Shown: positions 19,377 through 49,817 of the stretch, piece by piece
Layout: each line of letters starts with the position of its first letter
How positions within the stretch are numbered: position 1 is the first letter of the stretch
Origin: Schmidtea polychroa
Taxonomy: Eukaryota
DNA length: 60,000 nucleotides
Assembly (NCBI GenBank): GCA_044892525.1
Contig: CM097885.1
Coordinates: 3,846,001-3,906,000, forward strand
Direction of reading: 5' to 3'
Program-made: the position numbers and the translations under genes
The notes under the pieces: model-generated
Database searches by the model: none
What the model saw: the letters and a program-made list of their open reading frames with translations, nothing else
What the model was told of the DNA's origin: nothing

Positions 19377-21424
19377 TTACATCATAGCAACCTAAGATAT
19401 ATTTAGTCCACACGCACACCGACACGATGATGTCCTGCTATTCTCAAGTAGGGAGAATTTTGTTGCGATTAGCCAACAAAGCAGGAGCATAGTGAATATA
19501 CAACCTTCGTTCAAACAAACAGATGTATGTTTACACGCTGTTACACGTCGTTATGACGACAATTTCGGTGAAAATTTGAAATAGAAAAATTTAGATTTTA
19601 ATAAAAAATAAAAAATTAATAATTTGCTTTGAATTAATAAGTTAATAAAATTAATAACCAAACTAACCTGATTTAGAGCAGCGCCAGGGTACATTAGCCG
19701 CATTGAATTACCCTGCTAACTTAAAACCCACATAATTTCGACAAAGTATAAAACATAATATAAAAATATAATTGGATAAAATAATAAATAAAATTAACGA
19801 TGATGAAAATAATAATGAAATCCAATAGTAATATAGTTGATAGTAATTGTCAAACCCCGAAAATAGACACAAGGTTGTTTTAGGTGAATAGAGTAATCTG
19901 AGAAGTCCCAGTTTCTTTTCATTGAACTACAACTGTTTGAACGAATTAACTTGAATGTTTGAGGCTTGAATGGGTTTAAGTTTTGTCAAAGGTATGCATG
20001 TGTGAGACATTCCTGATTCTATGCATGGGTGGTATGATAAAACTCGTGGTGTTAAAGCATTAATAGTGATAATCTTTTAAAATTATAAATAAAGGACTTC
20101 TTATTCTGCAGATGACTACTCCCACCAATCCTGGAAAAAATCTTCGCCCATGTTTCTCCTGCGCCGATAAAAATGCGGATATCGCGCAGCTCCATCTGTA
20201 CATCGAGGAATTGAAAAAGAGAATTGACCTCTTCGAAGGAACGTGGTTCTCCCCGCCACAAATGAAGGAAGAAAAGAGCAAGATTTTACGTCTGGAGCAC
20301 TGCCGTGACAGTCTCCTAGAAGAGAGTAGGTGTTAGAGGCTAACCATAAAGGCCAAATCCGAGGCACTTCATAAAGTATATTCTGAATCCGAAATAGCGA
20401 AGCGAGTTCGCGAATACCCAATACAAGATGGGACCAACGTGTTCCCAGTGCACCACCAATCTTCAGAGCCATCAACAACTGGTTTTAAGGGGCATGGCCT
20501 GCATTTGCCACCAATTCCCGCCCAGTTCTCTCAGGCTATAGGCCTATGGCAGGAGGCCCATCGGATCCCATCTTGGACCCGATCCTCGTGTCACATATCG
20601 CACAATGTCCAACAGAAGCCACATTGCCATATCGGAAGCGCAAGAGGCCGACGCGCAAGAGGCCGACGCGCTCGGAGAAAAATCAGAAGCGTAGGAACGC
20701 TATGGCCGCGCTCGAAGCTTCATTGTCCGTGGCACAGTCAACTATCAAGGAGATCGCATTCACCCATTCAATCCCCGCTAAAGAAATCTTCCGGGTAGTT
20801 CCAGCCGACAGCATCAAATTCCTCGAAGATCGCCGGATACCCGTCGACATTGACGAAATGATCGCTTAGGGAGAAGTCTTTCGGTGATTCGACTCGCCAT
20901 CAGTCTCGATTCTTTTCAGTTGTGAACAAACATCGCGATGATCTATGATATCTTCTAAGGAACGGTACTGCATGATTAGCTTTCTAAGTGTCTTTTCTGT
21001 GTATTAACCGTTGTACAGTATATTTTACTTACCTTAATATAATTTTCGTTGCGTCAAGTGCGTTCTTGGTATGAGTTGTTATGTGGTTGGCATAAATGAA
21101 TGGTGAATTTGAATGTATGTCAATAGATAAAGGTCGTCCCCTTGGACCAGGGTCGAACCGAGTAATGTGTGAGAGTTTGGGTAAGACCTTCTAGGGCACC
21201 TTAGAACGCGAACCGTGAATGGGTTAATAGTAGTCCTAAGGCAGGGGCTCACCTGTTAACCAACTCAAACCCATGTGTGCACCACCAACGTGTAATATCT
21301 CCACGGGCTCACATGAGGGATATTAGTAAAATCATCACGGATATGCTGGGTGAAGGACCTGAGCGGAATAAAACGATTTTATGCCTTGTAATAAAAATTT
21401 CTTTCCTCCCCACATACGCCAACA
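19377..21424 (+). mobile_element. Large TGTTGG...CCAACA element (family B), 5'-truncated copy
   Basis: Contains the family ORF, the 3' structured module, AATAAA near 21367 and the terminal CCAACA at 21424. Left boundary is set by the adjacent insertion. Confidence 0.7.
20112..20887 (+). pseudogene. Family B ORF: CxxC, coiled coil, Arg-rich motif (disrupted)
   Basis: PCFSCADKN...LKKRIDLFEGTWFSPPQMKEE...RKRKRPTRKRPTRSEKNQKRR...IPVDIDEMIA. TAG at 20334 and a frameshift; acceptor TTCTGCAG sits immediately before the ATG. Homologs at 33515-34301, 42763-43280 (-) and 47940-48645. Confidence 0.75.
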
Positions 21425-22886: not shown

Positions 22887-24719
22887 TTACTTAAACACAT
22901 TCAAAATCTCCGTGGAACGGGCAACTTGATCATTTATTTTTGGATTTAAATATCTAATCAACAATGCCTCACAAGTTACTCGTTCCCAATAATTACTTAA
23001 ACCTTTTGAAATAATTTTAAAATCAGAGATACCTATTTTTTTACTGACACATTTCCTAACATGATTACTAATATTAGTCAATCCTTTTGGCCGACAGTGT
23101 TCAAGAACTCGGGTGCAGAGATGACGGGCAGTCTCTCCAATGTATATGGCATTACACCCATTACATGAAAATTGATACACAAGCTCAGAACACAAACCAA
23201 TTGGCGTTGGACATTTACTAGTAAACATACTGCTAACTTTGCAAGAAGTGGAAACAATCCTGAATTGATCCTTGTCTACATATTTGAGAATTTTATGTTT
23301 AAATTCTCTGAAACCCTCCGAATAAGGCAATACTAACACATATTTCGGCTCCATGCGATTGGATCGATTCTTGTCACTTTCCGAATTTAACATAGTACTT
23401 TCCTCAGGATCAATAGGTACCTCAGATTCAGACGTACGCATACCAACGTTATCAGATTTAAACATTAACTTATCCACGGTCACTTTTGTCATCTTCTCAA
23501 GAAAAGATTTAGAGTAGCCATTTTTAAGTAACAACTCAACCAATACATCAATACTTTTTACTGAATTAGCAAACGTGGAGGATAGTGACCAAGCACGAAA
23601 CACTAATCCTCTCACCATATTCCTTTTATATTTAAACTCACAAAAACTATCAGGCGTTGTATATAAACCAGTATCCGTCGACTTTCTATATATTTTTGTC
23701 TCATAATGTTTCGATTTGCGTTGAATGAGTAAATCTAAAAACGCAATCGATGACCTTTTTTCTTCCTCACATGTGAATTTAATATTCTTATGCAAATCAT
23801 TCATAAAATTTAAAAACGGCATTACATGTTCACGACTCTCAAACACCAAAAAAATATCATCCACATACCGTTTGTACACACTAGGTTTAACAAGATGGCA
23901 TGAAGACATTTTCTTTTCCAAACTAGACATAAAAATAGAAGCCATAGTTGGGGCTAATGGACAACCCATAGCAACACCATCCACTTGTTTATACCATTCA
24001 TTATTAAACAAAAAGTTAACATTCGACGTTGAAAATTCAAGCAATTTGCGAAAAGCAATTTTATCCACATTCTTATGTTCAGACTCATTATTATTCCACA
24101 TTTCACAACATAAATCAATCGTTTCCGCCAAAGGAACATTAGTAAAAAGACTACACACATCAAACGAAACCATCACTTCATCATCAGAACTTTTCTTCAG
24201 TGCAGCAATGAATGAAGCAAATTCAAAGCTATCCTTACATTCGAACTCAGACGCCATTAATGGTTTTAATAACCCATCCAAAAATTTGGCAATTTTATAT
24301 TGAGCGGTTCCTACCATCGATAACACTGGTCTCATAGGCATACCTGCTTTATGTACTTTTGGAAGACCATAAAGCTTTGCGGGTTGAGATCCTTTCGGTT
24401 TTAGGAATTTCACCAAATCTATATCAATATTTTTATCATCCGACAATTTGTTTAACATTTTTATCAAAGTTAGTTCATCTTTCAGAGGAGGCAACTTCCC
24501 ATTTTTTCGACAACTACCATCTTTAACAAACTGTGGAGATGACAAAACATCGTTCAATTTGTTCACATACACATCATGGTCTAAGATAACCAAACCATTA
24601 CCTTTATCATATTTACAAACGTTAATATCTTTTTTAGCCAAATTCTTCAAGATCAAAAAATCTTTTATATCTTGTTTTTTATTTTTATTAATATAATCAA
24701 TCGTACTCACATTCAACAA
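22887..24719 (-). CDS. Penelope-like retroelement RT plus GIY-YIG endonuclease (5'-truncated, open frame)
   Basis: DKGNG, LYGLPKVHK, SFDVCSLFTNVP, GVAMGCPLAP, RYVDD, and LVYQFSCNGCNAIYIGETARHLCTRVLEH. Confidence 0.95.
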   Translation of the reverse strand: MLNVSTIDYINKNKKQDIKDFLILKNLAKKDINVCKYDKGNGLVILDHDVYVNKLNDVLSSPQFVKDGSCRKNGKLPPLKDELTLIKMLNKLSDDKNIDIDLVKFLKPKGSQPAKLYGLPKVHKAGMPMRPVLSMVGTAQYKIAKFLDGLLKPLMASEFECKDSFEFASFIAALKKSSDDEVMVSFDVCSLFTNVPLAETIDLCCEMWNNNESEHKNVDKIAFRKLLEFSTSNVNFLFNNEWYKQVDGVAMGCPLAPTMASIFMSSLEKKMSSCHLVKPSVYKRYVDDIFLVFESREHVMPFLNFMNDLHKNIKFTCEEEKRSSIAFLDLLIQRKSKHYETKIYRKSTDTGLYTTPDSFCEFKYKRNMVRGLVFRAWSLSSTFANSVKSIDVLVELLLKNGYSKSFLEKMTKVTVDKLMFKSDNVGMRTSESEVPIDPEESTMLNSESDKNRSNRMEPKYVLVLPYSEGFREFKHKILKYVDKDQFRIVSTSCKVSSMFTSKCPTPIGLCSELVYQFSCNGCNAIYIGETARHLCTRVLEHCRPKGLTNISNHVRKCVSKKIGISDFKIISKGLSNYWERVTCEALLIRYLNPKINDQVARSTEILNVFK

Positions 24720-25672
24720 ATTCTTTACATAATTATTATCTATATTCTTATCTATATATTCTTATCTTAAAATTCATTCATAAAATTTATCAAATTTGTG
24801 AATTTAAATATAAATTTACATGAAATAGTTTTTGTTTAATAATATAATATTTGAACATTTAGCTAATGAAAAAGTGAATAAATTTATGAAATGTTACATT
24901 ATTTAATATTAAATCATTTCATTAGCTATTAAAAAGGATCTCATTACAAGTGCAAATATTATTATTATCATTATATTAGCAATAATATGATTAGCAAATC
25001 GGACCCGAGACCTTTAAGAGATCCAAATTTCATGAAAGATACAAAGCAAAAATTAATTAAAGCAAATCATTTAATGATTAAAAGAATGCGTAACAGAATT
25101 TGATAGAGTTTAGAAAGCACCGATTGTCCTCATCGCATCGACAGCTCTCATTTTGGTAAACTTACCCAAACTGATGTGAAAGCAATTTGGAACATTTTAT
25201 CAATATTGTTGTTGCGGATTGCGTTGAAATGCCTCACAAATAGCTGGCGGAGGTGAAATGTTAAGGCATTAATCAATTTGATATAAGGCAATTTTAGTAT
25301 TGCATTTAGGTGCATTTTACTGCCATTCAATACAGCAATAATTTCTCCACAACTCATATAACATCAGCAGCAGCAGCGATGGCGGTTTTCTCGTCGGTTC
25401 CATTCGTCATAGGAGCGCTTGATTTGTTGAGGCGATTTGTCAGCGCTTATATTCGGGTGGATTTTGATTGGATTATTTCTTTCACATTAATTATTAATTT
25501 AATTATAATAAATATAATGATAATATCGGATGGAAGGCGCGGGGGGGAGAATGACAATGATTATCACAATAATTATCTCATATAATAAATCAATAATAAT
25601 AATAAGGCAAATAATAAAACAGATCAAAAGCCAAAATAAATCAATTTTTTATTGAAATGTTTTTTAAATTTG

Positions 25673-27043
25673 TCAATTTTTCAATCTGCAACTGAGCAGC
25701 AATTTATCACTTTTGGCTGCAAATTTATAGATTGTGTAATCATTATAAATCCAAACTGGATCATTTCTGTCATCTGACGGTTTCCCCCATACGGCTGCAT
25801 CAGGGCGATCTGAATATTTCACTAACTTGCTCACATAAATGCTGCCATTTGTTAGAGCGATCACATCGATTGCCACCGATTGATTGAACGGCCAATCCAA
25901 TTGCTCACCATTTGCCCCACGCATCACACAGAAACCAACCTCAACCCAATTACGCCCAATCGCCACCGTCAAGCATATTTTGTAACCGATTAACCCGGAA
26001 TAAATTACCTTGCTGTAAATATATTCATTTCTCTTTTGTTGTGATAATTTATCGATTTGCCATTCAAAAAATCCATTATTTATATATTTTTCACATCCTA
26101 ATTTTGTTTCAATCTGCCGAATTTCATTGGCGCATTTCGCCATTTCAAGTTGCAACTGTATCCCAAATTCAAACATTTCACAAAATCAATAAATCACCTT
26201 TTCATTATCCCGTTGCAGCCGCTGCTCGCATTTCTCTTTCATATCATCAATTTCCTGTTGACAGTTTGATTCAATCACCTCAATTTGCTGTCTGATTTGC
26301 TTTGCATCAATAACAAATCAATAACAAATCAAATCAATAATCAAACTTGATTGATTGATCCAATATTTGTCTCCATCTCCATTCTCAATGAGCGATTCTC
26401 ATTCTTCAATGCCACCATTTCTTCATTCAATTCTTCTATTTCTGCTCTGTTCTCCGCCTCTTTCCTTTCAATATTGCAGAATTTCACCTAAAATCACAAA
26501 TATCCATTAAATTAATTACAAATAAAATTTTACATTGATATTGATAATTTCCTCACTCAATTTCACATTCTCCTCTCTCATGACCTGCATCTCATTGTAC
26601 AAATTGCTGATCTGATCAATCAGAAATTTGCTATGACATTCATTGTTTTCATTTAGATGGACTCTCATTTCGTCCTTCTCTACTTCATTCATTTCACATT
26701 AATTCTGTTGAACGGGCATCTAATTGGTTGCTTGTTACATGTTCTCATGTGGCTCTCCATCATGCACAACTCGGTTTTGATTTCACAATTTTTCATTGGG
26801 CATTTTAAAATTTTTATTGAAAAGAATAGTTTGAACTTCACAATATTTTGCTGCTCCTGGACAGAATTTATCTTTTCCATCCAAATAATGCTCAATGCAA
26901 TCAGAACAAAAGCGACAACCGCAAGGAGCATTGCAAGCCTTTATCATTAAACATTTGCAAATTCTGCATATCAATTCACTGCTGATTTCATTATCAAATT
27001 CAAATTTATTTCTCTTCATCATTTCCCATACGCTTGCAAACAT
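25673..27043 (-). pseudogene. TRAF-like pseudogene (RING, Zn finger, coiled coil, MATH)
   Basis: Colinear with 36311-37735, but a deletion after ILFNK near 26815 shifts the frame; further small indels near 26700 and at the C-terminus. Confidence 0.85.
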
Positions 27044-27684
27044 TTTATCTAAAATTAACAAAATTATCAAAGTATTTCAACATTTTACAACATAACTCAT
27101 AAATCATACTTATTATATTAATTATTTCCTCTGACGTTTACAATTTCAATATTTATAATTTACATTTGATGTAGATAAACAAACATTTTATAAATATTGT
27201 ATTTTAGCTTTGAGCGCAATTCGGAATATTATTAATGTTAATTTTCAGCATTTTTCTCATTTATTTTTAATATTACAAAATTATTATGAAGGAATTCAAA
27301 TAAAAATACCTAAAACTAATTTCAATTTTGTCTCGGATATATCATTTCATTTCCAAGCAACCGAATATAAAAGTGCGTCAGCTATTGATCCAGTAGGCCT
27401 TGGAGAACTCCTTGCTGAATCCAGCTGACCGATGCCTGAAGCATTACCCGATCTATTGGGTAACAGAACATATAGTCTCCTCTGGCCCTGACCGGCGTAT
27501 CCGTCACACCAGCGCAAACATATTCCCATCAAGATCATATAGACTTTTACTTGAAATATACTCAGGTAATCTCGTAAGATAAAAGAAATGAGCTTTCATA
27601 TTTAAAATGATTGTAATGCATTGTAATATTATATTTTTTATTATTTATTATAATTTAATGTGGATTGTATTTTTAATCAACACG

Positions 27685-29460: not shown

Positions 29461-31315
29461 CTTATATATGAGAATGTGATTAAGATCTCCAATCCAGCAT
29501 ATTTGCGATGAACGATTAGAACGTCACCTTCAGAATGATTGATAAGGAAACATCATTTTATGCCATATCATACTCGGATTCCAAAGGGCATGGTCGCTAG
29601 GTAAATTAATTTATTCGATATATATTGCTAGAAGTAACACGATTTGTAATATTTTATGTTTCATAACATTTTTACAATTATCATTTATGAAAGAACTCTG
29701 GTGGATCTGTCTATCATGACTGTCTAGAGACGGTCGGTAGTAATTTAGTGGTGTCGAGGTGAGTCATGGTAAGTAGAGAAGCTTCTATTAGGAAATTTAT
29801 TTGAGTGAATTGAGTTAAAGGCAGTTGGGAGTTCCCTTCGAGTGGCAAGAGAATATAGTTTCGTGAAACGTAAACATCCAAGAAACATCTTTAAATCTCG
29901 TAGTAGTTCCAAATCTTTTCGATAATCAAATCCTATAAGAAAATGTAGGAAATTTCCATCTGAGAAAATAACGTCGAAACGACCATTTAGATTAGTTCCC
30001 TCACACGTTCATTGAGAATTCTTCTTACAGAGTTTCTTTAACTCAAAGATCGGCTGTAATTTAGAAATCGAGACGAGTCCATGATCATAATTGTCCATCT
30101 GAATTTGCAGAAATCAGCTATAGGATATTCCGTGTAGAAATACATATTTCAATTAGCATCATTGGCGTATCTCGATTTTCGATGAAGTTTTATCATCACG
30201 ACCAACATGCGGCATTTGTTGGCCATTGATTAAGGCCATTGATGGGCATATAATAAGCATACGCTTAATGTTAGGAGATTTAACGTAAATGCAATAATAG
30301 ACGGCATAAAGAATTGTAGAGGCCCGAGGAATGGATTTAATCAAATAGACAAAGCTGTTTATCAGATCTACTTGACTCGATATGGGTGTTGATAATAAAT
30401 TGAATTAATGTAAATTCACCCCGGAAACCGAGGAAAGCTTTAGGTCAATAAACAGCGAATATACAGAGATAGTTTATCCCCATAGCCGATCTACAGCTAG
30501 GACCGAACACCCGATATGACAAGAATATGATAAACAAAATAAAATTTTCTCGAATAACTAATATCCAATTAAGCCCTTTTAATAAATTATCTGTCGGAAA
30601 AGTATTATTCTTAATCATTCTCATCTGAAGTCTCATAGTTCCTAAAGTTAAGCAATAAAAATCTTTCATCGACTCTAACCAAATCATATTTTCCCAAACT
30701 TATAGTACTTAATCATTAATAAATGATGATTTAAATTCAATACAAAGGCAAAATTGATCAAATCTTGCCCTGACAAAGACACTATTCTAAGGATGAAATT
30801 ATTGAATGTTGAGTGTAATATTATGACCGTGGGTAAGAAAAGTAATGAGGATAAAAAATACTCGAATTTTTACGGCATGTTTTTCACGATGCCAGGATAA
30901 ATTATCTTGATAAGCTTCCTTTTTCTAGAATGTGCGAGTCAAGTTTACTGCCAAAAGGCCCTTAACCGTGCTTCTTCTGCGCGGATTAAAATGTTGGGCT
31001 GAGTCGAAAACATAAATTTGGAAATTAAGACAAGCAGGACATTAAATAAAATAAAAATAAGACGAACAAAGTTAAAAAATAAATCGAAATACAAAAGAAA
31101 CAAATAAATTTGGATATAAGAATTAAAACAAAAAATAAAAATAAGAAAATTAAAATAGGAAAATAAAATGACGAATAAAATAACGTAAAATTCAATAAAT
31201 AATGAGGAAATTAAAGAAACAAATAAAAAATATAATAGAAATAAGAAAAATTAAGAAAAATAACCAAAAACAGAAAAAGTAATTTAAATTAGAACAAATA
31301 AGCGGTACTCAATTC

Positions 31316-31351
31316 TGATTGGTCCGCATAAATGAAAAATCTGTATATAAG
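31316..31351 (+). promoter_or_regulatory. Inverted CCAAT box plus TATA box of family B; conserved at 45529-45566
   Basis: GATTGGTCCGCA followed ~15 nt later by TATATAAG in both copies. Confidence 0.65.
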
Positions 31352-31748
31352 CAAACATTAAAATCAGTACACTTACCGTTAAATTTAAAACTTCTTAGGT
31401 AAAACGACCATCAGTGACATTCAGAAACTATACTACGAAAGAATCATCAGCGACAAATACAGATATCATTCAACAGCGAGATCCATTAAATTTTCGACTC
31501 AGCCTTTCAATATCTACAGAATAATTCGGTAAGAATGTTGTTTAATAAAACTAGTATATATGCCGTAATGATTGAATGTTTAGTATATTAAATTAAATTC
31601 TAAGTATCTTTATCTTTTCTTTTCATTTGATCCGTTTTTAGTAATTGTAACGAAGTCAGTAATGCAATTGATAACAATAAATGTATTATTCAGAAATTTT
31701 TGAGCTATTTTATGATCGAATATTTATAAATTTTTATGTTATGAGAAA

Positions 31749-31870
31749 CGTGGAGTTGAGACGTTTCATACCATAGTGTGAGGGGCCTTCGGGTGCTCAA
31801 CCGGTGGGTATGAAACGCTTCAATCACGCAGCTGATTCGGGCCGAAATGTGGGGGCTTCCTCACGGGTCC
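31749..31870 (+). ncRNA. Conserved structured RNA motif 1 of family B; second copy 46031-46152
   Basis: Long stem with compensatory changes between copies, a cUUCGg hairpin, and GTGAGG/CCTCAC loop complementarity. Confidence 0.65.
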
Positions 31871-33514
31871 GTCACTGAAGATGCGACTAAAATTTACGAG
31901 CGGTATTCTGGAAAATAATGTCTATTTAGAGTTTAAAAAGAGTCACGCTAATAGTATGAAATGAAGAAAAATCTTTGGAGAGTTCGCGCAGTGATTGGGG
32001 ATGTCACACAAATCGACACGTAGTATCACCTTTACTAAACTTAGATCATCTCTAGCATCGGGGAAATCCATACAAAATTCTATTAATTCGTTCTGATCAT
32101 TATTATCATCATATTGAACATATTAATCGAGTTCGTAATCCAACTCAAAGTTGTTCTTATAACCTTCAGTCCACTTAACTTCGTAAATTCTATTTCACCT
32201 CCTATGCCCCTCGTGTATACTCAACTTAGATCCATTTGTCACGAAGTCTTACATTATGGCTAAATCCGAAAAAGAATTATTTACCTTGTAGATAGTTTTT
32301 AAAAAAAAAAATTAACTATAAAGTACTATGGAATCAAACCGAATTCACAAGACAATGTAACACAGTGAAATTTATTTTTTTTTTAAAACGATCCAGCACG
32401 ATATCTACTTAGAACACCGAACACATAATGTCTGAGGTAAATTGTGAGAGACCAAGATGAGATTTCATCAATACGATATTCCATCCAAGTTCGAAAAATC
32501 CGATTTTTGATGCAGTTTAGAGAACAGTAAAATGTCAGCAGTTGTCGAATTGTTTTCCACGATCGTTGAGGCACTAGCGCAAATTTCCAATAGATAGTGA
32601 TAATTTCCATGAACTAACAGCAGAAGATTTCCACGATGAGAGCTTACAGCAGCATAGACGATAATATATTTTAAATAAGCATCCAGTGAGAACTACGAGA
32701 CATGTGGTATGACCAAATATCTGTGAAACTAGCATATACTAATTCAATTAGATGAAATAACAACATCCAGATCCGATAATGGGACGACAGCATGAGAATT
32801 CACATCTAAGTAGGACAAATGAAAACACCCACAGCACTAGAGTATAAACTCATACACTAGATAAGTTTCTCCGCAACCGCCACACGCACACACACCGAAT
32901 GGTAGAGAGATAACCAGCATGCGAGTATACCAGTGGCCGTGACAAGGCATCCATGAGTTGTTTAACAGATGAATTTATACACGTCGTGGGTATAGCGACC
33001 GTTATCAGTGTAATCAAGTCACTGAATTTTCTTCATCCTCAATTTACGTCACATTAAGTAGGTCAACCCAAGCGTGAGTGAGAATGACTTTAACAGATTT
33101 AGGTGGTGAAACTCTGATCTCACTCGCTAATCGAATAATTTTAGTTAATCAAATGTTTATGCCTCTAACCGATTGAATCATTTTATGTACCACATCTGGT
33201 TAATTTAATAATGATAGTAAGATTTCTCCCCCCGACATTCAGGCACATCGATAATCCGTTTTGGTAGCTTATTTCAATGACAATGGATGTAATACCACGG
33301 GGTTTTACCATCCACTTTTCTTTTATGAACTCCGATAAGGTAGAGAAGGTTAGCCGTCTGAAGGGGTTTCTCTTGTCAGCATGATGTCACCTTTCTTTAT
33401 TGTCGCGAGGTGTGCAGGCGGATTGTAAAAACTATAAAACCACAAATGACTGTCTGTCCTGTAATAACGATTTGGGAATCGTAGTGAATTGCGATAATTA
33501 TCTTCATTTTAAAG

Positions 33515-34301
33515 GTTAAATTCGTTGGAGTCAACCGAGTAGTGCCCCAGCAAAAATACGGATATCCGAAAATTAAACAAATATGTTGGGCAATTGAAAA
33601 AGCGAATAGAAAATAACGAGTGCACGTGGTTCTCCACACCACAAATGAAGGAGGAGAAGACCAAGGTATTACGGCTGAAGCACTGTAGGGATAGTCTCCT
33701 AAAAGAAAGCCGGTACCAACGTTTAACAATCAAGGCCTAGTCGGAAGCCTTGTATAAAGTATATTCAAAGGCCGAAATCCAACGAAGTATTCGGGAATAC
33801 CCTATAAAAGACGGAACAAACGTGTTTCCGTTGCACTATCAAGAGAATTAACCACAGTTGCCAAGAACCAGTTGTGTTGAGCAAGGATGCCATTTCCTAC
33901 CTCTGACGGATCCCGTTCTCTCCGGATCATCTAAACCCAATCGTGTATCTACGGAAACCACAGAAATTTTTTTTTTTTTTACTGCGTCGATACCTCTTTC
34001 TGATAATAAGGATCTCGCCTCATCCGCTAAGAAACGGAAAAGCCCGTGTTGGGCCGAGAAAAATCAAAAGCCACGAGATACTATTGCTACTCTAGAAGCA
34101 TCCCTGTTCGCTGTTCAATCTTCTAAAGAGCAATTTCCCAAGATTGATAGGTCCATTTTGAGAGAAGATTTCCGGATAGTTTCCACCGAGATATTCCACC
34201 TACGAGAAGACGCAAGGCTACAGGTGGGCATAGACGCCCTGTTAGCTGAGGGCGAAATGTTTTCACCTGCTCAAATGACCCGTATCCCGAATGAAGTGTG
34301 A
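33515..34301 (+). pseudogene. Family B ORF (disrupted)
   Basis: KNTDI...LKKRIENNECTWFSTPQMKEEKTKVLRLKHCRDSLL...DGTNVFPLH...KKRKSPCWAEKNQKPR...VGIDALLAEGE with two internal stops. Confidence 0.75.
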
Positions 34302-34474
34302 AATTGTATCATGTCCTTTAACCTTCGTTGTAGAACTCATTTGTAATTACCATGTGTTTTCACGTTGTGCATTAAAATTTGTTAGTGTTGAATTTGATAT
34401 GGTCAACTTCGTTGTTTTAATTTTGTGTTTGGAATTCATGGACAGTTATGTAATAGAGAGGTTTAATCATAGAA

Positions 34475-34660
34475 AGACGTCCCTTGGACCAGGATGTCGG
34501 TTTGTGTAAATGAGACGAGCTAAGACCTTCTACGGCACTTTAGAATCCAAACTGTGAACTTTACCAGGAATAGTTCTACCATGGGAGGTCACCTACCGGT
34601 AGATTCCAACCTATGTGCGCAGTAGCAACGTGTTACATCACCACGGGCACACATAAGGGA
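34475..34660 (+). ncRNA. Conserved structured module 2 of family B; copies at 21130-21320, 29130-29215 (-), 42408-42592 (-), 48925-49066
   Basis: TAAGACCTTCTA, then a CAC-bulged hairpin, then a CCAA-bulged hairpin; stem sequences differ between copies but still pair. Confidence 0.65.
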
Positions 34661-36310
34661 GATGATTCACAAACCATGAAGGTTACTTGGGTGATTCCAT
34701 CTGAGTATATAAATAGTTTCTTTTCCCCCTAAGTAACCAACAATTTTATTTATTTTTCATTGCGATAATTTACTTTTGTAAATTATCGCTATATTGTTTG
34801 GTTACACTTTTTATTGATTCAACCACACTTGATACAACCCTTTTTGCTCTGCACTTTTCAATACCAGTGTAAATCTTATATAGGGATAAATCTTCTAACG
34901 GGAGATGCTGCTTTCTGGTGAGCTCGATTTTATAATCTGCAGTTTACACTAAGTTCAAAGTTTTCTTTATTACTCTCACTAAATCTTTAGTTTAATTTTC
35001 TTCCATCAACTAGCAATTCTGTTTTCTAGCCGGTCACTTTTATACCTCTCTCGTAATTTGAATCGCTGTGTAAAATTAGTTCGAATCCAATTTCGCCCCG
35101 GGTTTCCTCTTGTCGCTTTAAAGAATTTCTCCTTTGACGACTTACCTTAATTTGATTTTGAGGTTCTCTCACATCGCTCGGGTTTTCCATTTGTCGGGTT
35201 TTCCAGTGTCTCTGATTCTCCATTAGTTAATTAATTTTTAATAAATTTTAGTTTTTTATAATTAATGACCCCCACTGATTTTATTTTATTATATTTGAAC
35301 TCGTCTCATTACTCGGCTGATTCATAGCGGCATTTAAAAGTAAAGTTTTCATGAATGCCTTTAAGTAAATCTATCAGCGACACTAGGACATTTAAACAAC
35401 ACAACGAACGAATTTCAGGTTCCAAAATATTTTCTTATAGCTTTTATAGATATGATCCAGCTGGTTGTCTAATTTCTAATTTTTTTTAAATCTTAAGGAT
35501 TTCAAGATAAATTTTGTAAGTAAAATTCTTTTATCAAATTTATGAAATTTGTGAATTTAAATATTAATTAAATATTAATTATTAATTTACATGAAATCAT
35601 TTTTGTTTTAATAATATTATATTTGAACACTTATCGAATGAAAAAGTGAATAAATTTATGAAATGTTACATTGTTTAATATTAAATCATTTCATTAGCTG
35701 TTAAGAAGATCTCATTAAAAGAATGCGTAACAGAATTTGATAGAGTTTAGAAAGCACCGATTGTCCTCATCGCATCGACAGCTCTCATCTTGGTAAACTT
35801 ACCCAAACTGATGTGAAAGCAATTTGGAACATTTTATCAGTATTGTTGTTGCGGATTGCGCTGAAATGCCTCACAAATAGCTGGCGGAGGTGAAATGTTA
35901 AGGCATTAATCAATTTGATATAAGGCAATTTTAGTATTGCATTTAGGTGCATTTTACTGCCATTCAATACAGCAATAATTTCTCCACAACTCATATAACA
36001 TCAGCAGCAGTAGCGATGGCGGTTTTCTCGTCGGTTCCATTCGTCATAGGAGCGCTTGATTTGTTGAGGCGATTTGTCAGCGCTTATATTCGGGTGGATT
36101 TTGATTGGATTATTTCTTTCACATTAATTATTAATTTAATTATAATAAATATAATGATAATATCGGATGGAAGGCGCGGGGGGGGAGAATGACAATGATT
36201 ATCTTAATAATTATCTCATATAATAAATCAATAATAATAATAAGGCAAATAATAAATCAGATCAAAAGCCAAAATAAATCAATTTTTTGTTGAAATGTTT
36301 TTCTAATTTT

Positions 36311-37735
36311 TCATAATTTTTCAATTCTGCACCTGAGCAGCAATTTATCACTTTTGGCTGCTAATTTATAGGCTGAGCGATCATAATAAATGCAAACTGG
36401 ATAATTTCTGTCATCTGACGGTTTCCCCCATCCGGCATCATCAGGGCGATCTGAATATATCAGTGACTCGCTCATATAAATGTTGCCATTTGCTGGATCG
36501 ATCACATCGATTGTCACCGATTGATTGAACGGCCAGTCCAATTGCTCATCATTTGCCCCACGCATCACACAGAAACCAACATCAACCCAATCATAATCAT
36601 CCCCAATCTCCACCGTCAAGCACATTTTGTAACCGATTGGCCCGGAATAAAATGCCTTGCTGTAAATCAATTCATTTCTCTTTTGTTGTGAAAATTTATC
36701 GATTTGCCATTCAAAAAATCCATAATTTATATATTTTTCACTTCCTAATTTTGTTTCAATCTGCCGAATTTCATTGGCGCATTTTGCCATTTCAAATTGC
36801 AACTGAATCTCAAATTCAAACATTTCAATAAATCAATAAATCACCTTTTCATTCTCCCGTTGCAGTCGCTGCTCGCATTTCTCTTTCATCTCATCAATTT
36901 GCTGTTGACAGTTTGCTTCAATCACCTCAATTTGCTCTTTGACCTGCTTTGCATCAATAACAAATTAATAACAAATCAAATCAATAATCAAACTTGATTG
37001 ATTGATCCAATATTTGTTTCCATCTCCATTCTCAATGAGCGATTCTCATTCTTCAATGCCACCATTTCCTCATTCAATTCTTCTATTTCTGCTCTGTTCT
37101 CCGCCTCTTTCCTTTCAACATTGCACAATTTCACCTAAAATCACAAATATCAATTAAATTAATTACAAATAAAATTTTACATTGATATTAATAATTTCCT
37201 CACGCAATTTGACATTCTCCTCTCTCATTGCCTGCATCTCATTGCACAAATTGCTGGTCTGATCAATCAGTAATTTGCTATGGTCTTCATTGTTCTCATT
37301 GAGATGTATTTTCATTTCGTCCTTCTCTACTCCAATCATTTCGCATCCAATTCTATTGAACGGGCATCTAATTGGTTGCTTGTTACATGTTCTCATGTGA
37401 CTCTCCATCATGCACAACTCGGTTTTGAATACACAATTTTGCATTGGGCATTTTACAGTGACTTCAGATATCCTTAAATTGACTGGGTGATCCACAGAAA
37501 CATCCTTATTGAAAAGAATAGTTTGAACTTCACAATATTTTGCTGCTCCTGGACAGAATTTATCTTTTCCATCCAAATAATGCTCAATGCAATCAGAACA
37601 AAAGCGACAACCGCAAGGAGCATTGCAAGCATTTATCATTAAACATTTGCAAATTCTGCATATCAATTCACTGCTGATTTCATTATCAAATTCAAATTTA
37701 TTTCTCTTCATCATTTCCCATACGCTTGCAAACAT
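36311..37735 (-). CDS. TRAF-like protein (RING, Zn finger, coiled coil, single MATH), apparently intact
   Basis: Predicted exons 37735-37181, 37134-36994, 36943-36845, 36802-36311; internal exon lengths (141, 99) equal those of the 9480 gene; no stops. Confidence 0.9.
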
Positions 37736-38195
37736 TTTATCTAAAATTAATAAAATTATCAAAATATTTCAACATTTTACAACATAAATCATAAATCATA
37801 CTTATTATATTGATTATTTCCTCTGACGTTTACAATTTCAATATTTATAATTTGTATTTTGATGTAGATAAACAAACATTTTATAAATATTGTATTTTAG
37901 CTTTGAGCGCAATTCGAAATATTATTAATGTTAATTTTCAGCGTTTTTCTCATTTATTTTAAATCTTACAAAATTATTTAAATTATAATTTGATAATAAA
38001 AAGTAAAATTTTAATGGAAAGTTAAATAAATCCAAATTAAAAATAGATCAAAATATAAAAATAAATATTGTTCATAAAATATTAAAATAAAAAAAGTAAT
38101 TATTTAAAGAAATTTATCTGAAATTAGAATTTATTTGAACAGATTAAAAAGAAATTCAAAATCATCATAGCAAAAATAGAAATATAAATAAAATC

Positions 38196-38581
38196 AATAT
38201 AAACATTACAAGCTTTGTGATACCCAGTGCAAATCCCAATAGTAGACTAGTTTCGAGCTTTTGGTTCTCATCAGGATTATGCAGGAGACGCGAAGATTAT
38301 TCTTCGCGCCAGTTAACTATATAATATTGCTGATTCAACTCGATTGCATACTTTCCCTGGTACACTGGAAATCGCATCACTTGCAAATTAGCTAATTCAC
38401 ATAAGAAATATCTGCAAACTTGTAAAAATGGCGAATGAAAAATCATATTCACCTCTGGAGAACAAAATAGTTTAGACACAGAAACTTTTCACAAGTGCAT
38501 CCGTAAACCTTTAGCTAAGCTCAAACTTCTCTACTATTGGGATTTGCACTGGTTATCACAAAGCTTGTAATGTTTATATTA
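38196..38581. repeat. Foldback insertion with ~55-bp inverted arms upstream of the TRAF gene
   Basis: AATATAAACATTACAAGCTTTGTGATACCCAGTGCAAATCCCAATAGTAG and its near reverse complement; absent from the paralogous upstream region near 9020. Confidence 0.7.
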
Positions 38582-41138: not shown

Positions 41139-41286
41139 TGGTTTCTGTGTGATGCGTGGGGCAAATGATGAGCAATTGGATTGGCCGTTCAATCAATCGG
41201 TGGCAGTCGATGTGATCGATCCAGCAAATGGCAGCATTTATATGAGCAAGTCAATGAAATATTCAGATCGCCCTCGTCATGCCGGA
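41139..41286 (+). pseudogene. TRAF MATH-domain fragment
   Basis: GFCVMRGANDEQLDWPFNQSVAVDVIDPANGSIYMSKSMKYSDRPRHAG. Confidence 0.9.
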
Positions 41287-44093
41287 CGAGTTCAAATATA
41301 ATAAAATAAATTCATTGGGGGTCATTAATTATAAAAAACTAAAATTTATTAAAATTTAATTAACTAATGGAGAATCAGAGACACTGGTGTAGTAGAATTT
41401 TACATTTTTTAATTATAATTACGAACCAAAACAGAACCTCAATTAGGTTTTATTTTTACTTCTGTTTTGGCGTTCTCGACTTCCTGGAACTAAAATTATT
41501 AAAAAAACTATATAGCGATAATTTGCTATAGTAAAAATTGACAAAATAAAAAAATCGAATTAGAAATTTAGATAACTAAGAAAACAGAAAGTTATATAGA
41601 AGATTAATCTTAAGATACTCAAGAATAAAGTTCCGAAAAAGATAAAAAAGAAAATTATAAAACCTAAACAATTCGAGATTAAAGTTCTGAAAAATATTAA
41701 AAGGAATATTATCAAACATTAACAATTCAAGAATAAAATCCCGAAAAAGATAAAAAAAGAAAATTATAAAGACTTGTCCAATTTCTATGAGCCGAGGTTT
41801 CAGGTCGATTATTTTATATATATTATTTCTTTAATAAAAATTGTTATCGTTTACAACTGTTATTGTTAATTTTTTTATACATTTTATTTGGGGTGTCATA
41901 AGCACGCAGATACACACGCACCCCGATTGTCCCGCCACAAGTTTTAACGGAGACTCTTTCGAGCTCATCAAATTTCTTAAATAATCTATACAAATTAGAT
42001 ACAAGCTAAGAGTAAACTTTTAACATAACAACTGGAAAACCCGGGACAATGGAAAACCCGAGCTATGTGAGAGAACCTCAAAATCAAATTAAGGTAAGTC
42101 GTCAAAGGAGAAATTCTTCAAAGCGACAAGAGGATGCCCGGGGTAAAATTGGATCCGAACTAATTTTACACAGCGAAATCAAATTACGAGAGAGGTATAA
42201 AAGTGACCGGCGAGAAAACAGAATTGCCAATTGATGGAAGAAAATTAAACGAAAGATTTAGTGAGAGTAATAAAGAAAACTTTGAACTTAGTGTAAATTA
42301 TCGCTATGTAAAAATAAATAAATTTGTTGGTTACTTAGCCGGAAAAAGAAACTATTTATATGTTCAGATGGAATAACCCAAGTAATCTTCATGGTTTGTG
42401 AATCATCTCCCTTATGTGCGCCCGTAGTGATGTAACACGTTGGTACTGCGTACATAGGTCGGAATCTACAGGCAGGTGAGCTCCCATGGGAGAACTATTC
42501 CTGGTAAATTTCACAGTTCGGGTTCTAGAGTGCCGTTGAAGGTCTTACCTCGTCTGATTTACACAAACCGACATCCTGGTCCCAGGGACGTCTTTCTATG
42601 ATTAAACCTCTAGATTACATAACTCTCCATGAATTCCAAACACAAAATTAAAACAACGAAGTTGACCATATCAAATTCAACACTAATAAATTTTATTGCA
42701 CAACGTGAAAACACAAATGAATTCTACACCGAATGTCAAAGGACATGATACAATTTCACACTTCATTCGGGATACGGGTCATTTGAGCAGGTTAAAACAT
42801 TTCGCCCTCAGCTAACAGGGCGTCTATGTCAACCTGTAGCCTTGCTTCTTCTCGTAGATGCGATATCTCGGTGGAAACTATCCGGAAATATCGATCTTGG
42901 GAACTTTCTCTTTAGAAGATTGAGCAGTGAACAGGGTCACTTCTAGAGCAGCAATAGTATGTCGTCGCTTTTGATTCTTCTCGGCCCGACATGGCCGTTT
43001 CCGTTTCTTCGCAGATGAGGCGAGATACTTATTATCAGGAAGAGGTATCGACGCTGTAGTGATTTCTGTGGTTTCCGTAGATACACGATTGGGTTTAGAT
43101 GATCCGGAGAGAACGTGATCCATCAGAGGTAGGAAATGGCATCCTTGCTCAACACAACTGGTCCTTGGCAACTGTAGTTGATTCTCTTGTTGGTGCAACG
43201 GAAACATGTTTTTCCCGTCTTTTATCGGGTATTTCCGAACTATCCCTACAGTGCACCAGCCGTAATACCTTGGCCTTCTGCTCTTATTGATGAATTTTAC
43301 CTTTGTATTGAATTTAAATCATCAGTTTATTAATGATTAAGTACTATAAGTTTGGGAAAATATGATTTGGTTAGAGTCGATGAAAGATTTTTATTGCTTA
43401 ACTTTAGGAACTATGAGACTTCAGATGAGAATGATTAAGAATAATACTTTTCCGACAGATGATTTATTAAAAGGACTTAATTGGATATTAGTTATTCGAG
43501 AAAATTTTATTTTGTTTATCATATTCTTGTCATATCGGGTGTTCGGTCCTAGCTGTAGATCGGCTATGGGGATAAACAATCTCTTTATATTCGTTATTTA
43601 TTGACCTAAAGCTTTCCTCGGTTTCCGGGGTGAATTTACATTAATTCAATTTATTATCAACACCCATATCGAGTCAAGTAGATCTGATAAACAACTTTGT
43701 CTATTTGATTAAATCCATTTCTCGGGCCTTTGCAATTCTTTATGCCGTCTATTATTGCATTTACGTTAAATCTCCTAACATTAAGCGGATGCTTATTATA
43801 TGCCCATCAATGGCCTTAATCAATGGCCAACAAATGCCGCATGTTGGTCGTGATGATAAAAATTCATCGAAAATCGAGATACGCCCATGGATGTTGATGC
43901 TAATTGAAATATGTATTTCTATACGGAATATCCTATAGCTGATTTCTGCAAATTCAGATGGACAATTATGATCATGGACTCGTCTCGACTTCTAAATTAT
44001 AGCCGATCTTTGAGTTAAAGAAACTCTGTAAGAAGAATTCTCAATGAACGTGTGAGGGAACTAATCTAAATTGTCGTTTTGACGATATTTTCT
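41287..44093 (-). repeat. Inverted segmental duplicate of about 29960-35303 with internal deletions; includes a family B 3' part at 42325-43280
   Basis: Matching ORF-track pairs on opposite strands (35026/42049, 33858/42878, 30445/43362, 30159/43705); junction near 43285 joins about 33652 to 30760. Confidence 0.85.
41388..42030 (+). mobile_element. Solo LTR (family C), 643 bp, 5-bp TSD ACTGG
   Basis: ACTGG|TGTAGT...CATAACA|ACTGG; the empty site is present in the paralogous segment near 35205. Confidence 0.9.
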
Positions 44094-44437
44094 CTATTGG
44101 TTACTTAATTGGTTATTTACCCACTATTATACTGTGAGCTTACCGTGCCAATATTACCGTGTCCCTTGTATGTATTACACAATTATCGGGTAGCTGATGG
44201 TGACGTAATCATACACATTGTTATGTAACCGCTGGGATTTACATAAACCATGTGATCATCATATGTAAACATCTAGTTTGGTTTGACAGTTTTAATGAAC
44301 TCTTGTCGGGATGTTAACTTTATGCTCAAACTTTGCTATTTCTGTGATAGACAGCCATCAAATATTTATTTGTCTCCTTCAGTTCGACTTGGCGATGACA
44401 AAAGAAACCAAGATCCATATAGAATACACCAGATGTA

Positions 44438-45196: not shown

Positions 45197-48100
45197 TGTT
45201 GGGCTGAATTGAAATAAAAAATAAGAAAATAGCATTAAGACAAACATGATAAACAAATGAGTAAAAATAAACAAAAAATTAAAAATAAAATAAGACACAT
45301 AATAAAGAAGAAATAATAAATTAGGCAATGAAAACTAAAACAAAAAATTAAAATTAAAAATTAAGATAAGAAAACAGCAATAATAAGGAAAATAACACAA
45401 AAATCAAGTAGTTAATAAGAAAATTAAGAAAATAAATAAAAAATATAATAAAAATAAAGAAAAAATAAGAAAATTAGCAAAGAAACATAAAAATTAAATT
45501 AAAATAAATAATTAAGCGGCACTCAATTTTGATTGGTCCGCACATACGCAAAAATTAGTATATAAGGTAAGCACTGAAACAAAAATTTCATTGTTAACAA
45601 ATTAACCATTTAGGTAAGAAGACTTTTAATTACATGCAGTGTTAACAAATTAACCATTTAGCGTTCAACAGTTATATAGATCAATCATCAGGACAACCTA
45701 GGAGAAATTGAAAACAAAACCATCGATTCAGCCCACAAATCAGTCGAGTTATTACTTCAACAAAACTTTAGAATTAAATCTTACCTATTTCGAACGGATA
45801 CTTTGGAAAATTTTAGTTTTGCATTAATATGTAATCTGATTAAGTAATTTATTATTTGTAATATCTGAATGTAAAATTAAAGGACTTTTAAAGAACACTT
45901 CTCTTTTCACTCGATATCATTAAATAATTAATTTTATGGTATAATTAGTAGCAACTATTATTTTTTTTTTGCGAGTTTTATATGTTTTATGTTTTATTTT
46001 TTTATGATTTATTAAAAATTCAATGAGTAACGTGGAGCTGAAATGTTTCTTACCATGGTGTGAGGGGCCTTCGGGTGCTCAGCAGGTGGGTACGGAGCAT
46101 TTCAGTCACGCAGCTGACTCAGGCCGAAATGTGGGGGCTTCCTCACAGGTCCATCGCTGAAGATGTGCCTAATCTAGTGGGAAATGCTAGGGTGAAGATA
46201 AAATTTATGCAGAGTATTGGAAGAGAATTCGTATTATAAAAATTTAGATGGCAGGGAGTGTCAGGAGCAGGTCTACACAGTGATTGAGGGTGTCGCACAT
46301 TTGGCATAGTTAGCAATTTCTTTACATTCGGAAAATTCGCACAAAATTCGTCACTTCACCTTAATCATCCCATCACACAAGTAAAAGTATAAGAGCTCAG
46401 CTATGATAAATCCTATTTTAGACCCACTCATTACTCCGAAAAATAAATCTCGTCGAGACGATATTTGAATTAAGATATTCTCAGAAGCGAAAACACCTTG
46501 TGAATCTCATCAATTTTTCTATCACTCACACTAGTATCACCTCTCGAACACCAAATCTATTTCCAATTTTTTCCCTTTTAATTATCTGTTCCTCAAAACG
46601 CCATAAAATCTGTCTCACCATCTCCATTCGTCTCGTATAATCTAAATCAGTATAGGTCCATTTGTCATCATCTCCTTACCCTATAGGTATTTGAAAAATA
46701 AACGCGAAAAACAATTAAATACATTTTATTTTGCACAACAAAACGAAAAATTGAGGTTTACTTTCGAAAATGATCCATCGCCGTGCCTGTTTGCAATGCT
46801 GAGCATATCGTAAGCCCGATCTGATCTGCGAATAGCCAGCATGAGACTCCACGAGGAATGAATTTCCTTCTAAATAATTCCAATCAAACTCGACGCACGC
46901 ACGGAGAACAGTAGGCTGCTAAAATTCATCGAACCATCTTCTAATAACCCTAGAACAGTTGCAAACTCACGATAGACACCGTTAATTTCCACGATTTGAT
47001 GATAATTAAGCATTCCGCTACGAAAATTGCAAAATTAGCCGATGAGAAAATACTCCATAAGCAACGCATGTAGAATGAGTAAAAGTACATGTGGCATGAC
47101 AAAAGTTTGATAAAAATACACCACTTAGTCTACCGGATGAGATAATACCACTTATGCCGTCTGAGGAATTTTGAATAACATAAGAGATCCGTGAGAGTTC
47201 ACACACGGAAATGACGAGATAAGTGCATTCACAGATTTTCCGCGTATACATAAATCCAAACATCGAGATAATATCATCCAGCAGTATTCTGAAAAAAACT
47301 ACATCGTTATCAACTGACTAGCCAAATGTTAGTTTTCCATCCAATGTGAATTTTTCTTGAATACCACCTGCACGTCACCAAATGACATAATCTACATTAA
47401 GAGCATGTATAACCAACAGCTGTACGTCATTGCGGGTACACGAATTGTTATCTGAATTAACGTATCGACTAAAATCCGTCCGAGACATAAATAATTTAAG
47501 TACCTCGATAAGAATAACCAATTTAACATTTTTTTTGGATTAAAATTGAGGTTTCTGTTATCTAATGACCCGAAGTGAAAATAAATAAGGATTAATTTGA
47601 TTTTTATTCTACGCATCTTATTCTGTTATTTAATCAATTTTAATATGTATCCATTCCCACTCGGATGGCCATGAGAATATTTCCCACAAACATTCGGGCG
47701 TATTTATCAATTTTCTCGTAAAGAATTTCGACGACTATGGGGGTGATGCCATGGGGTTTTGCCTTTTAAATTTCTTTTATAGAACTATGCTAGTGCAGTA
47801 ATGATCGATCGTATTGGAGGTGAGTTTTCTCTTGTCGGTATAAGACCGCAAATGTTTATTTTTATGTACCATTGGTCTACGGATGAAGTGAATTATTGAT
47901 AATTACTCTAAATTTTCTTTCCTTTTATAGCCTACGATTATGAATCCAGTCGCCAAAAATGTTCTCAAACCTTGTTACTCGTGCGCAGATAAGAACGTAA
48001 CCATCAAGGAACTGCAGGCACAAATCGGCTACTCAAACGCAAGATTGATGAATTGGAAGGCACATGGTTTAGCCCAGTGCAAATGAAGGAAGTGAGAAAG

Positions 48101-49332
48101 AAATTGTATAGAAGCGAACACTGCCAAGATAGCCTGATCGCAGAAAATAGATCTCAGTGTATGCTCATTAAGGAACAATCTAAAGCCCTTCATAAGGTTT
48201 ACTTACAAGCTGCAACAACGCGAAAGATCGTAAGCATTCCGATCAACGAAGAGGACAATGTGTTCCCCACGCATCACGATCAGCCTCTCGACAGGTCGGC
48301 ACATCGAAGAAATCATGCCAAGGGTGTGTGGAGACGGAGCTCTCGTCCAAATCTAATGACGTAATCATCACAGCACCCCCTACTGTCAGTCCTTCTTCCA
48401 AGCCCAAACGGCGGCAACTATCTCGGGCCGAACGAAAGCGAAACCAGAGGGAGAGAGGTGCAGAAAGAGAAAAGAAGCAAGTATCAGCTAATGCATCAAC
48501 AGAAGGTAGTGTTGCTCCTATAACTAGTATAAACACTGGAATCCCAGGGCGCATTATCTCCGCAGCTGGCGTCACATGGAAGGAGAATGCATCCGAATTT
48601 TTCAACCTAGAAGAGCTATTAGCAGAAACTGAATGGGAGAAGTGACCCAGTTTTGCGAGCAAACCGAAGTTCCAGTCGTAACTCTTGTGATTTTCAATGT
48701 GATGCTCTGTGTCTTCTTGTATTGTCTGTGTTTTTCTCTTGTACATCGATAATTTAATAAATCAGTTTTGTTTAAGTCATTGCGTTTTGCTTTATGTATC
48801 GGTAAACTTTACTTTTCCTTTTCTCTACGAGATAATTTGGTTGGCTGACACCTTTGAATAGTGTATGATTTGCAACAAACTCAGAAAACGATGGAATGTC
48901 GAGTGCAGAGGTAGAGTAGGAAGACGTAAGACCTTCTATCGGCAGTCAGGAAAAGGGAAGTCGAGGCCTCGGAAAAGAGTAGTCCTAAGGCAGGGGCTCA
49001 ACTGTTTTCTGGTGTCTCGCCGGCATAATACAGGACCAACATGAAGCAATTCATGGGTATTATGTTGGAATGCAGATCGTGTGGAGTTCTACTCAAGGTT
49101 GACAGAAATATGAACTATGTTAATGTAATGGGCTATCATCCTCTAGACGGGACTTAAAAGGCGTATGAGTCAACCGAGTAGCACCTCAGCACTACCTATT
49201 ATAAACGACTCGAATATTTATATATATTTAGGAGTCGATTTATCTTATAAACATAGACATAATATAGACGGAAGCCTAGAACAAGCACTCATAGACAATA
49301 TAAACGCCTTCTAATTACACCTACACCCAGCA
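45197..49332 (+). mobile_element. Family B element, divergent, near full length (right end tentative at CCCAGCA)
   Basis: TGTTGGGCTGA start, promoter, RNA motif 1, ORF 47940-48645 and module 2. LINE-like sequence seems to resume after 49332. Confidence 0.7.
47940..48645 (+). pseudogene. Family B ORF (two frameshifts)
   Basis: MNPVAKNVLKPCYSCADKN / LKRKIDELEGTWFSPVQMKE...DNVFPTHH / KPKRRQLSRAERKRNQRER...FFNLEELLAETEW; acceptor CCTTTTATAG at 47930. Confidence 0.75.
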
Positions 49333-49817
49333 CAGGAAATCTCAGACAATAAAATCTTTATACACTCACGTCTAATGTTCACCTTGCGCAATTGTGAAAT
49401 AAATCACATGATACTCGATTCAAAGAGAAAGGAAGGAGTAATGGGTAATAATATTTTAGCAAATCCGACACGAGACCTTTAAGAGATCCAAATTTCATAA
49501 AGATGCAAAGCAAAAATTAAATAAAGTAATTCATTTAATGATTAAAAGAATGCGTAACAGAATTTGATAGAGTTTAGAAAGCACCGAGTTCACTCATCGC
49601 ATCGACAGCTCTCATTTTGGTAAACTTACCCAAACTGATGTGAAAGCAATTTGGAACATTTTATCAGTATTGTTGTTGCGGATTGCGTTGAAATGCCTCA
49701 CAAATAGCTGGCGGAGGTGAAATGTTAAGGCATTATTCAATTTGATATAAGGCAATTTTGGTATTGCATTTAGGTGCATTTTACTGCCATTCAATACATC
49801 AATAATTTCTCCACAAC

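Follow-up and report, generated by a model that had tools for sequence, protein, structure and literature searches.

The 60,000-nt stretch of the Schmidtea polychroa genome analysed here (the window) contains a segment that a first-pass annotation had read as a structured RNA inside an intron, and the locus raises the question of what this RNA is, which element carries it and what it could do there. Two copies are present in the window, both on the plus strand: copy 1 starts at 31749 and copy 2 spans 46031..46159, each where the annotation had placed it. The start of copy 1 stands as given, but its end at 31870 was set too early, as a second hairpin closes at 31877. The two copies are 85% identical within the motif and 38–51% identical in five non-promoter flanking intervals, in agreement with the earlier remark that the flanks are far more diverged; promoter-side intervals reach 68–76%. 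The genome searched measures 781 Mb and includes four very large contigs. A 31-nt core pattern from the 3' half of the motif has 1,496 genome matches and its reversed control has none, and DNA searches yielded 1,775 and 1,501 first-look candidates. The covariance model was applied to fetched loci, and more distant genomic copies may be missed. An exact 25-nt motif pattern has 0 matches in viral contigs and 0 in metagenome contigs. The comparison with Rfam proposed in the annotation returned nothing for the motif; its matches were mir-753, at another place in the window, and a single mir-15 match attributed to chance. The twin hairpin is an uncatalogued, strongly covarying RNA family with ~1,500 or more genome copies, and the motif is a real RNA element within a known transposon.

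Hairpin 1 (31749..31828, plus strand) is composed of a CGUG/CACG base, a covarying 17-bp stem and a bulged apical stem, and contains an AU/GGUG internal loop (31773-31774, 31803-31806) and a UUCG loop (31788-31791). Hairpin 2 (31829..31877, plus strand) has a CAGC/GCUG base, abuts hairpin 1 with no linker and carries a GNAA bulge (31844-31847) and a GCUU loop (31855-31858). Both hairpins are irregular. In each window copy, standard pairs form at 16 of the 17 positions of the 17-bp stem; the remaining position is a mismatch, A.C for copy 1 and U.C for copy 2. The earlier account of this stem, with changes that are compensatory or G-U tolerant, stands for all but one pair. The CGTG/CACG closure and the cUUCGg cap are found in both copies as described. 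What had been called an invariant loop is in fact a paired apical stem with bulges, and its invariance extends to the two window copies only, as columns 35, 41, 42 and 51 vary among families. Folding z-scores on the plus strand are -3.42 for copy 1 and -2.29 for copy 2, with 0 and 4 of 200 shuffles equally stable; the minus strand gives -2.53 and -1.04. In the alignment, G-U/U-G cells exceed A-C/C-A cells by 353 to 27, which argues that the plus strand is the structured one.

This alignment consists of 43 copies thinned from 81 unique sequences, which were the top or first-listed matches and came mostly from contig C1; in four of its rows the stem is misaligned by one register. The aligned copies are kin, so that pair counts represent cells and overstate independent events. 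In the consensus fold 95.3% of cells pair, compared with 37–50% in slid controls, and two-sided changes occur at 18 of 51 pairs, a level reached by 0 of 500 shuffles. RNAalifold returns a nearly identical fold with two-sided changes at 18 of 46 pairs. The covariation first proposed from two copies is present in this larger alignment, and a structured RNA under selection is supported. The lower stem holds most of the covariation (13 of 22 pairs), while the apex of hairpin 1 and the whole of hairpin 2 are mostly conserved in sequence, and the unpaired residues A30, U31, G40, U94, A110, A111 and G119 are fixed in 43 of 43 copies. The combination of a variable stem with near-fixed unpaired positions suggests a spacer helix that presents recognition sites.

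The annotation had also predicted a kissing loop or pseudoknot between GTGAGG and a downstream CCTCAC. The two strings are complementary, and 5–6 of their 6 pairs are still possible in all 43 aligned copies, so that an alternative long-range fold may exist. However, both partners sit in local stems, and the long-range pairing lacks covariation support: 111 of 500 shuffles are as well paired, and only 1 two-sided cell is seen. The long-range pair 35-128 is broken in 9 of 43 copies, and in a family changed at column 125 the pair 38-125 is mismatched in 4 of 10 copies. Conversely, the local pair 117-124 carries a compensating U in 96 of the 100 copies listed from 422 with a non-G at column 117. 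A two-state switch operating through this pairing, or a self-cleaving ribozyme, is the most improbable of the functions weighed here. The window copies do contain GAAA, GUC and CUGAAGA in the order of a type II hammerhead, whose core consists of invariant CUGANGA and GAAA within three stems, but only 19 of 43 copies contain both core strings. The look-alike is lost in the other 24 of 43, its CUG takes part in the basal pairing of hairpin 2 and Rfam gives no match, so the hammerhead was rejected and the ribozyme proposal finds no support. Patterns for twister, pistol, hatchet, hairpin and HDV cores gave no consistent plus-strand match. A Pol III transcript or microRNA precursor was likewise set aside, given that there is no T4 terminator and that the arms of the stem are variable, in contrast to the conserved apex. 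A motif-like string at L066:5020-5165 folds no better than shuffles (z 0.66).

Both window copies sit in solo LTRs with 4-bp target duplications, a location that the first-pass annotation had overlooked together with an arginine-rich protein encoded by the same LTR. Solo LTR copy 1 (30992..33552, plus strand, TG...CA ends, target duplication AAAA) has an internal deletion and is without the LTR ORF and a second RNA motif. Its insertion site is the ORF of a related, older LTR. This older host LTR is duplicated in inverse around copy 1 (29962-30761 and 33790-35305 versus 41285-44094, 88–97% identity). Solo LTR copy 2 occupies 45197..49191 (plus strand, target duplication CTAC). The LTR start is a common TGTTGGGCT end, found in 34 of 49 loci at 660–1,290 nt 5' of the motif; this end occurs 684 times in the genome, often as same-strand pairs ~26 kb apart. 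LTR pairs lie 25–31 kb apart with the motif inside both LTRs, and a period of 25.9 kb was measured. The element L066 carries two identical LTRs of 3,868 nt, an 18-nt primer-binding site complementary to host tRNA-Pro(TGG), a RING frame and a Gag with Pfam Retrotrans_gag, Ty3_capsid and zf-CCHC matches. A gag ORF in L063 was discarded as the element's own, as it belongs to another, nested element. At L109, tRNA-Pro(TGG) genes lie in 475-bp tandem units, a pattern seen at 2,164 places genome-wide.

The TG...CA direct repeats, target duplication and tRNA primer site are those of a Burro-like Ty3/gypsy LTR, and the ~30-kb size and the Gag with CCHC knuckles are likewise those of a Burro-like element. 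Burro/GYPSM1 elements are giant gypsy-like LTR retrotransposons of planarians (PMC6431247). The accessible part of that account agrees with the present element in the ~30-kb size, LTR pairs 25–31 kb apart, Retrotrans_gag with CCHC, a RING ORF and hundreds to thousands of copies; it differs in covering internal domains, without an LTR RNA structure or an LTR-encoded basic protein (PMC6431247). By description, the motif carrier fits a Burro-like giant Ty3/gypsy element.

Within the LTR, a CCAAT box (as GATTGG) and a TATA box at 31317..31352 (plus strand), conserved in position across loci, form a putative promoter. Two splice donors are predicted from sequence conservation at 31399..31404 and 31529..31534 (plus strand). 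Donor-like GGTAA(G/A) sites recur ~190–265 and 335–505 nt 5' of the motif, and 45 of 50 copies have at least one within 560 nt on that side. In copy 2, a U-rich tract with a YAG acceptor (47900..47939, plus strand) ends 9 nt before the ORF start, and such a tract and YAG lie 0–9 nt 5' of the LTR ORF ATG in 10 of 10 copies examined. The motif is thus placed between conserved donor sequences and an acceptor sequence just 5' of the LTR ORF. The earlier statement that it lies 3' of a donor is supported for these predicted sites, and we infer that it lies in a predicted LTR intron, where it would be intact only in RNA left unspliced there. Contigs of 4 of 12 runs contain no GT..AG joint among the 15 joints listed of 18, which carries no weight either way. 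AATAAA lies at -73 to -86 in ~19 of 50 copies, but in the remainder it is placed differently or missing, and the DNA is very AT-rich; it was not taken as a poly(A) signal 5' of the motif.

Two further features lie 5' of the motif. Just 5' of donor 2, the segment 31491..31509 (plus strand) matches the complement of the LTR 5' end at 15 of 19 nt. Pairing of this segment with U3, possible in the 3' LTR only, could mask donor 2; alternatively, the segment could be what is left of an earlier, shorter LTR terminus. Poly(A) control in foamy virus, as outlined in PMC3694450, is an analogous case of masking. A conserved pyrimidine island (TTCTCTTCATTTGA-like, ~31610-31625) lies 130–150 nt 5' of the motif in LTRs of this clade (clade A), and a similar string opens the structure of the sister clade B described below.

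The segment 31791..31804 (plus strand) resembles the tRNA-Pro primer-binding site of the element (12 of 14 nt here), which raises the idea that the motif is a second docking site for the primer tRNA or originated from a duplicated primer-binding site. The identity reaches 13 of 14 in 5 of 11 representatives, the duplex of ~-24 kcal/mol is equalled by only 1–5 of 200 shuffles, and the primer of the element is confirmed as tRNA-Pro. However, the segment is paired within hairpin 1, which leaves a net binding of -1.7 to -8.4 kcal/mol, while the true primer site has a duplex energy of -33.3 kcal/mol. Moreover, identity drops to 9–10 of 14 in three representatives; among these is the large L071/L107 family, whose primer site is the same. 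We regard this origin or role as very unlikely.

The LTR ORF encodes a protein of ~250 codons and is intact in 6 of 7 aligned copies, which are 39–95% identical to L066. In copy 2 it spans 47940..48645 (plus strand), contains frameshifts and shows a helical N-terminal half, an arginine-rich helix and an acidic end. All 6 intact proteins have a 17-residue window with 10–11 K/R, and AATAAA follows the ORF stop in 7 of 7 long LTRs readable that far. In the predicted model, long helices make up the N-terminal part, the middle is disordered, and a basic helix (residues 177-189) precedes an acidic terminus. An open frame of 315 codons, antisense to the LTR ORF (L131:24-968), occurs in one family and is possibly due to chance. 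A genome search with a remote homologue of the LTR protein gave 3,445 candidates; of the 150 that were scored, the majority are free of internal stops. Fifteen remote homologues match with E values of 7e-13 to 2e-4; they resemble exons that derive from elements and were joined to unrelated gene models, and an NxRRRERR-type run is present in 7 of the 10 viewed. In one of them, this run gives a sub-threshold match to Pfam REV (E 0.0013, 19.1 bits; cut-off 22), which is probably compositional. A search with the LTR protein gave 0 matches among 459 candidates, its best Atlas comparison of 0.84 is within the noise range, and its model (pLDDT 60) has no viral fold match at E < 0.001. No Pfam family, fold match or close homologue in these comparisons names the protein. 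A CRM1-type export signal, sought by regular expression in the 6 proteins, matches in 2 of 6 at unshared places and is not conserved. The acidic, hydrophobic C-terminus more resembles an activation domain, and the protein could bind DNA; the basic run could also be merely a nuclear or nucleolar signal.

The sister LTR clade B (L135/L132/L137, contiguous in the genome) encodes an LTR protein 39% identical to that of clade A. In the pieces examined, its LTR has no blastn match to the clade A LTR and none to the motif model R1 (best 6.8 bits). At the motif position, clade B contains another covarying hairpin, capped by GNRA and with GGUG as an invariant loop strand, which shows two-sided changes at 7 of 26 pairs in 10 copies and is found in 8 of 10 further regions fetched. 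The GNRA-capped hairpin with the GGUG strand lies at L135:1505-1600 and L136:685-770, and a long closed multibranch structure is seen at L135:1200-1430 and L136:365-615. Despite these differences, clade B Gag is 88% identical to L066 Gag, with the first two zinc knuckles near-identical. A short-LTR family has a Gag only 36% identical, with different knuckles, and keeps motif 1 (119–150 bits); in the pieces examined it has no LTR-protein homologue and no pol frame. L107 and L134 of this family (G000:C1:5728500-5742399) have 1.64-kb LTRs, a ~14-kb period and a gag frame of 877 codons that encodes four zinc knuckles, and the family is probably a gag-only non-autonomous partner. The near-identical Gag with other hairpins and the distant Gag with motif 1 indicate, in a comparison of one element per type, that motif 1 travels with the LTR type and not with Gag.

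CCHC knuckles prefer unpaired sites of the G-N-G type, and unpaired G-N-G strings are conserved in the motif (columns 9-11, 40-42 and 63-65), as would suit the earlier proposal of a packaging or dimerisation signal, if such a signal were read by Gag zinc knuckles. The proposal also gains from the position 3' of the predicted donors and from the retention of the motif in the gag-only family. In addition, hairpin 1 of the short-LTR element L108 is 94% like long-LTR-type copies and 71% like short-LTR L107, while the 3' flanks of L108 and L107 are 91% alike, which points to exchange at the motif and is compatible with co-packaging. The proposal is weakened, however, as the motif tracks neither the cognate Gag nor its nucleocapsid knuckles, again with one element per type: a different structure accompanies the 88%-identical Gag, and the same structure the 36%-identical one. 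In long LTRs the motif lies in the LTR ~3 kb 5' of the primer site. For dimerisation, no self-complementary loop is present, nor are there mutually complementary exposed loops with covariation that would form a kissing-loop initiation site, and the homodimer gains only -4.7 to -10.8 kcal/mol. Retroviral packaging signals, as far as described in the accessible part of PMC12789967, are similarly leader structures 3' of a donor with unpaired G's, whereas the flatworm motif lies inside the LTR, 5' of the primer site, and does not follow Gag. A more universal candidate is motif 2, the second structured RNA, which lies close to the 3' end of the LTR (48923..49075, plus strand). Further places are 21175-21325 in the window, L066:3700-3862 and L107:1700-1850. 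Motif 2 begins with a donor-like GTAAG, shows two-sided changes at 22 of 42 pairs in 8 copies, is common to all three LTR types examined (clades A, B and short LTR) and lies nearer the primer-binding site, making it a better candidate for packaging or priming than motif 1. For motif 1, we consider packaging or dimerisation unlikely.

About equally unlikely, in our judgement, is that the hairpins bring an export or splicing factor of the cell to unspliced RNA, much as the constitutive transport element of simple retroviruses does, with no partner encoded by the element. Such recruitment would accord with the predicted intronic position, with the conserved internal loops of the long stem and with the retention of the motif in short-LTR elements that lack the ORF. 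It is countered by the finding that two LTR clades in one host have different structures at the site, with only the GGUG loop strand in common, which a single host partner does not predict.

The explanation we favour, tentatively and at somewhat less than an even chance, is that the twin hairpin acts in cis as a response element, and that its partner is a regulatory protein encoded by the same LTR. Transcription would start ~30 nt 3' of the TATA box, and early RNA would be spliced from the donors to the acceptor, removing the motif and giving the ~250-aa protein. The arginine-rich helix of this protein would bind the conserved, purine-rich internal loops (AU/GGUG, a G.G mismatch and the GNAA bulge), which the variable stem would keep at fixed spacing. 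The bound protein could then favour full-length RNA through export or splice inhibition, in the manner of Rex or Rev, or alternatively through transcriptional activation or read-through, in the manner of Tat. Gag-only short-LTR elements would borrow the LTR protein in trans. Consistent with a response element are the position of the motif in both LTRs, the intact ORFs, the conserved fold and the conserved donor and acceptor sequences. Moreover, clade B pairs a 39%-identical protein with a different hairpin despite its 88%-identical Gag. This last argument is tempered in two ways: motif and ORF are linked in the LTR, so that physical linkage alone would suffice for their co-divergence without any binding, and the Gag comparison covers one element per type. 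Other features also speak against a response element. The short-LTR elements keep the motif without a protein homologue in the pieces examined, no database family or fold names the protein, its basic run could be no more than a nuclear or nucleolar signal, and the REV match is probably compositional. No CRM1-type signal is conserved, and the acidic tail would be compatible with a Tat-like or DNA-binding activator.

HIV-1 TAR is located at the very 5' end and is present in all transcripts. The flatworm system resembles Tat/TAR in its bulged LTR hairpin and in a basic protein that contains cysteines and may have an activation domain, but the motif lies ~260–470 nt 3' of the inferred start, in a predicted intron. 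Complex retroviruses govern their unspliced RNA through switches made of an RNA and a protein, and the arrangement in the flatworm LTR resembles these. The closest layout is that of HTLV-2 Rex/RxRE-2, in which, according to the part of the account available, an RNA structure in R/U5 of the LTR is intact only in unspliced RNA and an arginine-rich protein is made from a spliced message (PMC3434621); the corresponding splicing is predicted here. An arginine-rich motif is likewise found in the LTR protein, as a sequence feature. In contrast to HTLV-2, the flatworm gene lies inside the LTR itself, in a Ty3/gypsy host element and with binding as a proposal; the system has no conserved export signal, and neither sequence comparison nor Rfam gives a match. 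No response-element family already known, whether of RNA or protein, proved homologous, with nothing in Rfam and only the sub-threshold match in Pfam, and the twin hairpin is not, by sequence, a member of the HTLV-2 RxRE family. The MPMV constitutive transport element is similar as a stem-loop acting on unspliced RNA, a role only proposed for the present motif, and CTE-type export runs via NXF1, as far as the available text goes (PMC11599104); the flatworm motif differs in having no Rfam match and in being replaced between LTR clades. The accessible parts of the literature (PMC6431247, PMC8532177, PMC11410931, PMC13238120, PMC12789967, PMC11599104) contain no description of the motif or the LTR protein, and the original Burro account may mention an LTR ORF. 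The literature searches found no Rev/Rex- or Tat-like RNA–protein pair for a Ty3/gypsy element.

A broader proposal, which we offer as speculation and hold to be less likely than the response element itself, is that a self-contained regulatory cassette (promoter, intron, RNA response element and gene for an arginine-rich partner) arose in a 4-kb LTR of Burro-like elements independently of retroviruses. Different RNA–protein pairs would then swap on the same Gag-Pol body, gag-only relatives would exploit one pair in trans as parasites, and the solo LTRs of the planarian genome, which number in the thousands, would be potential stand-alone switch genes. How unspliced RNA from intron-bearing LTR retrotransposons leaves the nucleus is poorly understood, and clades A and B, with different hairpins, different basic proteins and near-same Gag, constitute a natural test of specificity. 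Even without a response-element mechanism, the motif adds a new covarying RNA family in the genome of a regeneration model animal.

Apart from the LTRs, the window contains a minus-strand frame at 22887-24761 with reverse transcriptase and a weak GIY-YIG domain (Penelope-like) and neighbouring repeats, with relatives near 25077-27285, 35714-38267 and 49447-51555. The mir-753 match corresponds to a precursor (Rfam RF04089) at 5039-5100 on the minus strand.
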